Source of the DNA: Escherichia coli
GTDB lineage: Bacteria; Pseudomonadota; Gammaproteobacteria; Enterobacterales; Enterobacteriaceae
Direction: 5' to 3' (one strand)
Assembly: GCF_016903815.1 (NCBI RefSeq)
Contig: NZ_CP069973.1
Length of the DNA: 64,000 nucleotides
Shown here one piece after another: positions 10,852 to 11,123 of the stretch. Numbering within the stretch: position 1 is the stretch's first letter; each line of letters begins with the position of its first letter. The translations under genes and the position numbers were made by a program. The notes beneath the pieces were generated by a model. The model saw only the letters and a program-made list of their open reading frames with translations, searched no databases and was not told where the DNA came from.

Positions 10852-10927
10852 GGGTCGTTAGCTCAGTTGGTAGAGCAGTTGACTTTTAATCAATTGGTCG
10901 CAGGTTCGAATCCTGCACGACCCACCA
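10852..10927 (+). tRNA. lysV: tRNA-Lys (UUU)
   Basis: GGGTCGTTAGCTCAGTTGGTAGAGCAGTTGACTTTTAATCAATTGGTCGCAGGTTCGAATCCTGCACGACCCACCA, 76 nt. Confidence 0.97.
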
Positions 10928-10930
10928 ATG

Positions 10931-10958
10931 TAAAAAAGCGCCCTAAAGGCGCTTTTTT
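10931..10958 (+). terminator. rho-independent terminator after lysV
   Basis: aaaaaagcgccc-taaa-ggcgc-ttttttt. Confidence 0.8.
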
Positions 10959-11065
10959 GCTATCTGCGATACTCAAAGATTCGAACCTGCAGCAGGTTCG
11001 AGTTGAGCGCAGCGAAACAACGGAGCCGCTCGCGGCGACGGCCCGAAGGGCGAGTGAAGCGAGTC

Positions 11066-11123
11066 ATCCTGCACGACCCACCAATGTAAAAAAGCGCCCT
11101 AAAGGCGCTTTTTTGCTATCTGC
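11066..11123 (+). repeat. 58-bp direct repeat of lysV 3' end plus terminator (second copy of 10910-10967)
   Basis: atcctgcacgacccaccaatgtaaaaaagcgccctaaaggcgcttttttgctatctgc occurs identically at 10910-10967 and 11066-11123. Confidence 0.9.

Follow-up and report, generated by a model that had tools for sequence, protein, structure and literature searches.

The region under study carries gltX, the tRNA operon valU-valX-valY-lysV and xapR of Escherichia coli, and it lies within a window of 64,000 nucleotides (contig NZ_CP069973.1). Three tRNA-Val(UAC) genes, valU, valX, and valY (10530-10605, 10650-10725, and 10772-10847, plus strand), were identified by ARAGORN and Rfam tRNA. The tRNA-Lys(UUU) gene lysV follows at 10852-10927 on the plus strand (ARAGORN; 79.2 bits against Rfam tRNA). 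A promoter-like site for valU, TTGACT-16-TATAAT at 10485-10512 on the plus strand, fits the published transcription start site 9 nt upstream of valU, which corresponds to about 10521 in the window (PMC4176162). The convergent neighbor xapR occupies 11194-12093 on the minus strand and is identified by its open reading frame and by PGAP annotation in other strains. Elsewhere in the window, positions 38502-38625 on the minus strand give a strong match to Rfam STnc490, an Hfq-binding sRNA (146 bits versus a gathering score of 56), that is unrelated to the lysV repeat.

A Direct Repeat and Its Terminators

A repeat search places two copies of a 61-nt direct repeat at 10910-10970 and 11066-11126 on the plus strand, with one mismatch at repeat position 59. 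The original prediction, which described a 58-nt duplication of the lysV 3′ end plus its terminator, is exact over 10910-10967 and 11066-11123. The repeat contains, in order, the last 18 nt of lysV, ATGT, a hairpin (AAAAAAGCGCC-CTAAA-GGCGCTTTTTT), and GCTATCTGC. Copy 1 thus runs from the lysV 3′ 18 nt through terminator T1 to GCTATCTGCGAT, and copy 2 runs from a tRNA-Lys 3′ 18 nt (11066-11083) through terminator T2 to GCTATCTGCAAT. Since this is a 58-nt exact repeat in 64 kb and the same layout recurs in thousands of E. coli genomes, it is not a product of chance.

Terminator T1 (10932-10958) is a symmetric A6-stem-loop-stem-T6 hairpin capable of acting in both directions. Its fold has a 13-bp stem followed by U6 and an energy of -19.1 kcal/mol (z = -6.0). 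Terminator T2 (11088-11114) is identical to T1 by sequence and repeat search and lies about 80 nt past the stop codon of the minus-strand xapR. The sequence from 10928 to 11083 forms a 156-bp tandem unit. A global fold of 10928-11123 pairs T1 with T2, and this was set aside as an artefact of folding the whole stretch together.

The interval between the repeat copies is 98 bp (10968-11065), and sequence and repeat search alike confirm the T-arm-like palindromic pieces that had been proposed there. A T-arm-derived palindrome spans 10978-11004 on the plus strand (repeat search) and forms a 12-bp hairpin of -15.2 kcal/mol, with tcgaacctgc-a-gcaggttcga at 10981-11001. It is composed of an inverted T-arm copy, GATTCGAACCTGC (10978-10990), an A, and the direct T-stem 5′ strand plus TTCGA, GCAGGTTCGA (10992-11001); the inverted part matches the lysV T arm at 10900-10912 exactly over 13 nt. 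The remainder, 11002-11065 on the plus strand, is recognized by family comparison as a 64-nt core of the tRNA-linked repeat (TLR) type between T-loop A58 and A59 of the tRNA-Lys-derived flanks. Within this core, hairpin B lies at 11025-11036 and hairpin C (GCCC-GAA-GGGC) at 11041-11051, while hairpins A and D are eroded.

Assignment to the RtT Family

The lysV repeat is rlV, an already known and annotated TLR. TLRs were first noticed in 1978, and the catalogue of Rudd (1999) has 22 of them at ten K-12 loci (PMC8144298). They sit in tRNA or rRNA operons, directly behind a tRNA or rRNA gene, and the last 18-19 bp of each repeat that gene's 3′ end exactly (PMC8144298). The supplementary strain table of the same study lists an rlV deletion beside rpK, rsX1-4, raQ/Z/V, rtV1-3, and rrA/B/F, and it describes strain TSS107, in which all 22 TLRs including rlV are deleted (PMC8144298, supplementary strain table).

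The unit in the window has the properties of a TLR. It begins directly after lysV, the last gene of valU-valX-valY-lysV, and its 3′ end at 11066-11083 (ATCCTGCACGACCCACCA) is an exact match to lysV 10910-10927. rlV is in the K-12 catalogue, the locus of DH10B (K-12) carries the identical kind of element, and PGAP labels the same site “RtT sRNA” in DH10B and other complete E. coli genomes. Positions 10958-11083 on the plus strand match Rfam RtT (RF00391) with 51.2 bits (E = 1.6e-9), above the gathering score of 45 and with the full model 1-130 aligned; the K-12 allele scores 47.3 bits. The consensus outer stem of the Rfam family is broken in rlV, where 4 of 8 outer-stem pairs are non-canonical in the cmscan alignment and the 5′ strand reads ACTCAAAGAT in place of GTCGTGCAGGAT. 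Despite this outer stem, homology of rlV to RtT at the level of sequence is not in doubt.

The likeness to tyrT/rtT repeat units noticed in the original prediction was therefore correct and understated, as the 51.2-bit score, the PGAP label, and the listing of rlV all assign the segment to the RtT family. Because rlV is catalogued in the TLR literature, the finding of the lysV repeat is not new, and it should be reported neither as a new sRNA nor as an integration scar. The element is of little weight for this window: it is catalogued, labeled by the annotation pipeline, and dispensable in most E. coli.

Related Units in K-12

The remaining K-12 TLR loci were fetched and scored with Rfam RtT, and each unit was compared with its own upstream gene. 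RtT-type units number four at tyrT (133-137 bits), one at proK (101 bits), five in the lysT operon, where they follow each tRNA-Lys (47-60 bits), three at serX (36-46 bits), and two in the arg operon (29-31 bits, below threshold). The core common to all K-12 TLRs is ...AACG-hairpin-GGCCCGAAGGGCGAG-small hairpin-GAGTMA, and its flanks match the unit's own local gene (Tyr, Pro, Ser, Arg, or Lys). On one side the flank repeats the final 18 nt of the gene (about 13 nt in the case of 5S), and on the other it is a 5′ strand complementary to the gene 3′ end (Tyr, GGGGAAGGAT; Arg, GGGAGGAT; Pro, GAGGAT; Ser, GGGGGGAT; short-form Lys, GTGAAGGAT). Only long-form TLRs contain an inverted T arm and then the direct T-stem 5′ strand plus TTCGA right before the core. 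Because the flank pieces derive from the local gene, the core always lies between TTCGA and ATCC of a neighbor-derived T-loop. The order of gene, terminator, TLR, 3′ end, and terminator is the same at proK, serX, and rrnB as at lysV.

Two further observations concern these loci. In the internal Lys TLRs of the K-12 lysT operon (L006 555-1577), the RtT alignment begins within the preceding tRNA-Lys, for example at 562-730, and the TLR 3′ end is able to base-pair with the 5′ acceptor strand of the real tRNA, a possible competing precursor fold. In the K-12 serW-clpA intergenic region (L011 554-581), there is an Rfam CRISPR-DR4 match of 50 bits against a gathering score of 35; it lies near the annotated partial TLR rsW′ and is probably a REP-like palindrome rather than a CRISPR repeat.

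A near-identical twin of rlV, rlQ, follows lysQ, the last gene of the lysT operon (L006 1654-1870), 1.74 Mb from lysV in K-12. The two elements differ by 1-2 positions per 156-nt unit and share the same terminators, the T-arm palindrome, and the doubling of terminators, whereas rlQ is found at a different locus, cpoB-nadA, and its right-hand repeat is shorter (54 nt). The lysV and lysQ operon terminators have been described as identical (PMC4176162). The lysQ unit contains CTGCGAT, which is the native flank of lysV and not of lysQ, and this match suggests copying from lysV to lysQ. The unit may thus have arisen at lysV and then been copied to lysQ by gene conversion.

Polymorphism in E. coli

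The census of E. coli genomes used a query that starts in the valX-valY spacer, passes through lysV and T1, and reaches into the core, with coverage of at least 80% taken as presence of the unit. At least one unit is present in 2,307 of 5,426 complete E. coli genomes (42.5%), and 57.5% are without it. Homology ends at window position 10970 in the genomes that lack the unit. Alleles with 0, 1, or 2 copies of the 156-bp unit were seen: those with none (EC958, BLR(DE3)) have a single clean repeat copy joined to the flank, and fS54a has two units. Copy-number variation at lysV, which had been predicted from the single window, does exist among E. coli. The lysQ unit is also present in some strains and absent from others, and variation in its upstream spacer blurs the coverage classes of the census.

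To the right of the second terminator, from about 11127 onward, the sequence is either xapR-xapB-xapA-yfeN (about 4.4 kb) or a short stretch carrying a FlxA-like gene of prophage type; these right-flank forms were seen in E. coli strains at L002 6449-6909, L136 7449-7909, and L137 7605-8065. Both forms occur with and without the 156-bp unit among the E. coli strains inspected. Because presence of the unit is independent of the right-flank form, the unit has been gained or lost recurrently or has been shuffled by recombination. The terminal direct repeats of 58-61 nt would allow loss or gain of the unit by slippage or unequal recombination.

Relatives in Other Bacteria

A TLR follows the Val-Val-Val-Lys genes in Enterobacter (two units), Citrobacter, Klebsiella (up to three units), Pectobacterium, Budvicia, Acerihabitans, and Photorhabdus. 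Judged from this distribution, a TLR at this position is ancestral in Enterobacterales, and the E. coli alleles with no unit would therefore most simply be deletions. In Klebsiella aerogenes, the lysV ortholog (L012 1368-1720) is followed by two cores in series, of which the upstream core is degenerate, with GAGTTTCCCTGC at its end; the second terminator of this species lacks its loop as well as one arm of the stem (AAAAAGGCGCCTTTTT). Set beside the K. aerogenes sequence, the palindrome of E. coli resembles the junction of a deletion of about 75 nt that took with it a degenerate upstream core.

In Yersinia pseudotuberculosis, a full-length copy of tRNA-Lys, altered by one substitution, lies behind the last tRNA-Lys gene, and the T-loop of this copy is split by a 65-nt core (...GGTCGCAGGTTCGA | GCCGAGC...GACGAGTC | ATCCCGCACGACCCACCA). 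Both the last tRNA-Lys gene and the TLR 3′ end (L014 1041-1425) read ATCCCGC instead of ATCCTGC, which creates an A·C mismatch in the T-stem. Against Rfam tRNA, all four Yersinia tRNA-Lys genes reach 73.9 bits, whereas the E. coli genes reach 79.2 bits. That gene and TLR share the T-to-C change suggests that their 3′ ends evolve in concert.

The family was surveyed more widely in one genome per species with the pattern GGTTYGR-N20-50-CCCGNAGGG-N5-30-GARTMATCC. The scan returned at least 156 matches at at least 120 loci, against an estimated chance expectation of a few dozen matches database-wide. About eight loci outside Proteobacteria were judged to be chance matches, as they are without the hairpin pattern. 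The matches listed include Gammaproteobacteria (Enterobacterales, Aeromonas, Alteromonadales, Oceanospirillales, Chromatiales, Xanthomonadales, Nevskiales, and Moraxellaceae) and also Zetaproteobacteria. They adjoin Lys, Tyr, Ser, Pro, Arg, Gln, Glu, Asn, Thr, and Val tRNAs, and most of their 3′ ends are identical to that tRNA. Altogether, the core of about 65 nt adjoins at least 12 tRNA types and 5S rRNA.

Removal of the insert in silico yields a complete tRNA by ARAGORN in 23 of the 156 matches listed, and 18 of these 23 are tandem interrupted tRNA-Lys copies in Photorhabdus caribbeanensis. The arrays of this species (L024 8824-9668, L025 1-600, and L026 5238-7900) are located at a Val-Val-Val-Lys locus and a Lys-Lys locus, and they contain at least 18 full-length tRNA-Lys copies with a period of about 175 nt, each with its T-loop split by a 64-nt core. 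They are a striking amplification of an apparently non-functional gene form.

The seemingly lone interrupted copies (L089, L106, and L135) each have an intact copy just downstream, and their acceptor 3′ strand is mutated and lacks CCA. A spliced T-loop intron was considered and finds no support in these three cases, given the accompanying intact copies, the damaged acceptor, and the missing CCA. On this sequence comparison, the interrupted tRNA copies are best described as pseudo-copies and not as splicing-dependent genes. Median core identity across distant orders is 0.75 for cores at the same tRNA type versus 0.66 at different types. This points to core-tRNA associations that would be old and mostly vertical in descent, with support that is modest and a within-genome value inflated by the Photorhabdus arrays.

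Core Structure

A set of 102 non-redundant cores was aligned with MAFFT and analyzed with RNAalifold; hairpins A and B could not be aligned, and single sequences were therefore folded and compared with dinucleotide shuffles. RNAalifold recovers the T-stem across the insert and a constant CCC-GAA-GGG hairpin, together with a 3′ hairpin in which GC, CG, AU, and UA are seen at each of three pairs among the 102 cores. Inserts folded singly have a median z of -1.84 versus dinucleotide shuffles, and half of them give exactly four hairpins. The TLR core is accordingly predicted to keep four hairpins through compensatory changes.

The lysV insert of E. coli is an exception, with a fold no more stable than that of its shuffles (z = +0.44), and the value for the whole rlV unit, 10971-11083, is not significant (z = -1.6). 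The outer stem is broken in E. coli because its 5′ strand (GTCGTG·AGG), which Pectobacterium and Acerihabitans keep, has been lost in Enterobacteriaceae. In the lysV/lysQ lineage of Enterobacteriaceae, hairpin B shows the compensatory pairs GCCGC/GCGGC, GTCGT/ACGAC, GCCGT/ACGGC, and GCCAC/GTGGC. Because of these changes, some structural constraint on hairpin B may persist in this family.

Transcription of the Locus

The full-length valU transcript of K-12 is about 438-440 nt long (PMC4176162). Counted from the start site at about 10521, it ends at about 10958, which is the end of T1. A northern probe that targeted the terminator rather than the core detected only a species of about 438 nt from the valU operon, and RNase P removes the terminator by cutting 2-3 nt past the lysV CCA (PMC4176162). 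RrA/B/F, the 5S-linked TLRs of rrnA/B/D, are expressed by read-through, bind Hfq and CsrA via GGA motifs, and undergo RNase E cleavage 3 nt beyond the repeat; as CsrA binders, tRNA-linked TLRs receive scores below 0.01 (PMC8144298). By analogy, a read-through transcript past T1 is plausible at lysV, and rlV may, like the 5S-linked TLRs, be expressed at a low level.

Origin and Rival Explanations

Taken as a whole, the locus is likely to be an eroded, split-T-loop copy of tRNA-Lys within a polymorphic tandem unit, and a dispensable relic rather than a working sRNA. We infer that rlV would be the eroded remnant of a second tRNA-Lys copy whose T-loop was interrupted at positions 58/59, with a conserved structured core of about 64 nt placed between TTCGA and ATCC. 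The E. coli copy would since have lost the 5′ part of the tRNA, leaving the T-arm palindrome, the core, and the exact 18-nt tRNA 3′ end, and this remnant together with the operon terminator would form the 156-bp tandem unit. Because the unit lies between two identical bidirectional terminators and past the point where the valU transcript was mapped to end, it is most likely a relic with little or no expression, and rlV in E. coli is probably non-functional and silent. Against the relic view, covariation in hairpin B suggests structural constraint. The persistence of the family across Gamma- and Zetaproteobacteria, with 3′ ends that track changes in the tRNAs of each species, also hints at function or active homogenization.

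The same covariation in Enterobacteriaceae can be read as a sign that rlV is a functional read-through sRNA parallel to RrA/B/F. The dual-terminator layout is that of the rrA/B/F read-through sRNAs, the second copy retains the ACCA-AU|G context of the RNase P cut after lysV, and the valU promoter is strong. This explanation is nevertheless unlikely, as the northerns showed only the transcript of about 438 nt ending at T1, a hairpin of -19 kcal/mol followed by U6. The unit is also absent from 57.5% of E. coli genomes, its E. coli core folds no better than shuffles, and tRNA-linked TLRs fall below 0.01 as CsrA binders. Rather than the RNA, the doubled bidirectional terminator could be the selected feature, insulating a very strong tRNA operon against its convergent neighbor xapR, in which case the TLR would be passive filler. 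T1 and T2 are indeed identical symmetric A6/T6 hairpins, xapR converges on T2, and terminators are likewise doubled at proK, serX, lysQ, and rrnB. However, the majority of strains carry no unit and manage with a single terminator, and the unit is found both with and without xapR as a neighbor. The second terminator of K. aerogenes is without its loop, and the units of Pectobacterium and Acerihabitans and the internal TLRs of the lysT operon have no terminator at all, so that selection for the doubling is distinctly improbable.

An att-site scar, also raised in the original prediction, would make the repeats attL/attR-like remains of an integrase insertion at lysV whose element was later mostly deleted. 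Integrases that target tRNA genes are known to use the T-loop as a crossover sublocation, tRNA 3′ ends typically serve as att cores, and the repeat starts in the T-loop. It nevertheless extends about 40 nt past the tRNA end over the terminator, and the 98 bp between the copies are gene-free. No integrase or island was found at lysV in seven E. coli strains inspected, including strains in which homology breaks. Matches in the phage collection are just two unannotated fragments of about 2 kb, and plasmid matches are nearly all non-mobilizable and mostly chromosome- or chromid-sized records, so neither set includes genuine phage or mobilizable-plasmid matches. The same core of about 65 nt at 12 or more tRNA types and 5S rRNA could not have been produced by independent deletion scars. 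With mobile homologues, integrase, and island all missing, a repeat that runs past the tRNA, and a core shared by many genes, the scar explanation fails and retains only a very small probability. As a separate observation, some PLSDB “plasmid” records carry chromosomal tRNA-operon regions with TLRs, for example beside purU; one is pSE81-1705-3 of Salmonella Enteritidis (L015, 33.8 kb), and mislabeled or chimeric records are likely.

The wider TLR family is more interesting than rlV itself. Its members occur in Gamma- and Zetaproteobacteria and adjoin at least a dozen tRNA types, and their comparison gives a concrete, testable picture of interruption followed by loss of the 5′ part. The reading of the family as tRNA copies interrupted at T-loop 58/59 by a four-hairpin core, still full-length in Yersinia and Photorhabdus, may be new. 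More tentatively, and with the balance on the side of doubt, the four-hairpin core of about 65 nt could be a present or former insertion module for the tRNA T-loop at 58/59, with all TLRs as its decay products. Such a module would be intron-like, IVS-like, or otherwise mobile, and it would enter spare tRNA copies in Gamma- and Zetaproteobacteria. The full-length interrupted tRNA-Lys of Yersinia and Photorhabdus might then still give rise to a tRNA-like RNA that carries an additional domain at its elbow.

Comparison with Known Systems

The RtT RNA rttR, downstream of tyrT-tyrV, is a close parallel within the family. Like rlV, it lies directly downstream of a tRNA gene, ends in an exact 18-nt copy of the tRNA 3′ end, contains the core AACG-hairpin-GGCCCGAAGGGCGAG-...-GAGTC, occurs in tandem units, and scores above the gathering threshold. 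rlV is weaker and eroded, with 51 bits, whereas the tyrT units reach 133-137 and a Providencia Lys-linked unit reaches 97.5. It also lies after a terminator, whereas rttR (tyrT) lies inside a transcribed spacer, and the RNA of tyrT is released when the primary tRNA transcript is processed.

RrA, RrB, and RrF share with rlV a TLR between two terminators, a 3′ end that copies the 3′ end of the upstream gene, and the core element AACGTTGC-GAAG-CAACGGCCCGGAGGG. Read-through transcription and the binding of Hfq and CsrA are features of RrA/B/F, which rlV matches in layout.

Archaeal tRNA introns at non-canonical positions and the intervening sequences (IVS) of bacterial 23S rRNA are small, structured, non-coding inserts that occur sporadically at a fixed loop position. 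The TLR insert resembles them in being a small, structured, non-coding, and sporadic insert at a fixed loop position of a stable-RNA gene. Unlike these systems, an interrupted TLR copy is always found together with an intact one, and its acceptor strand is often damaged.
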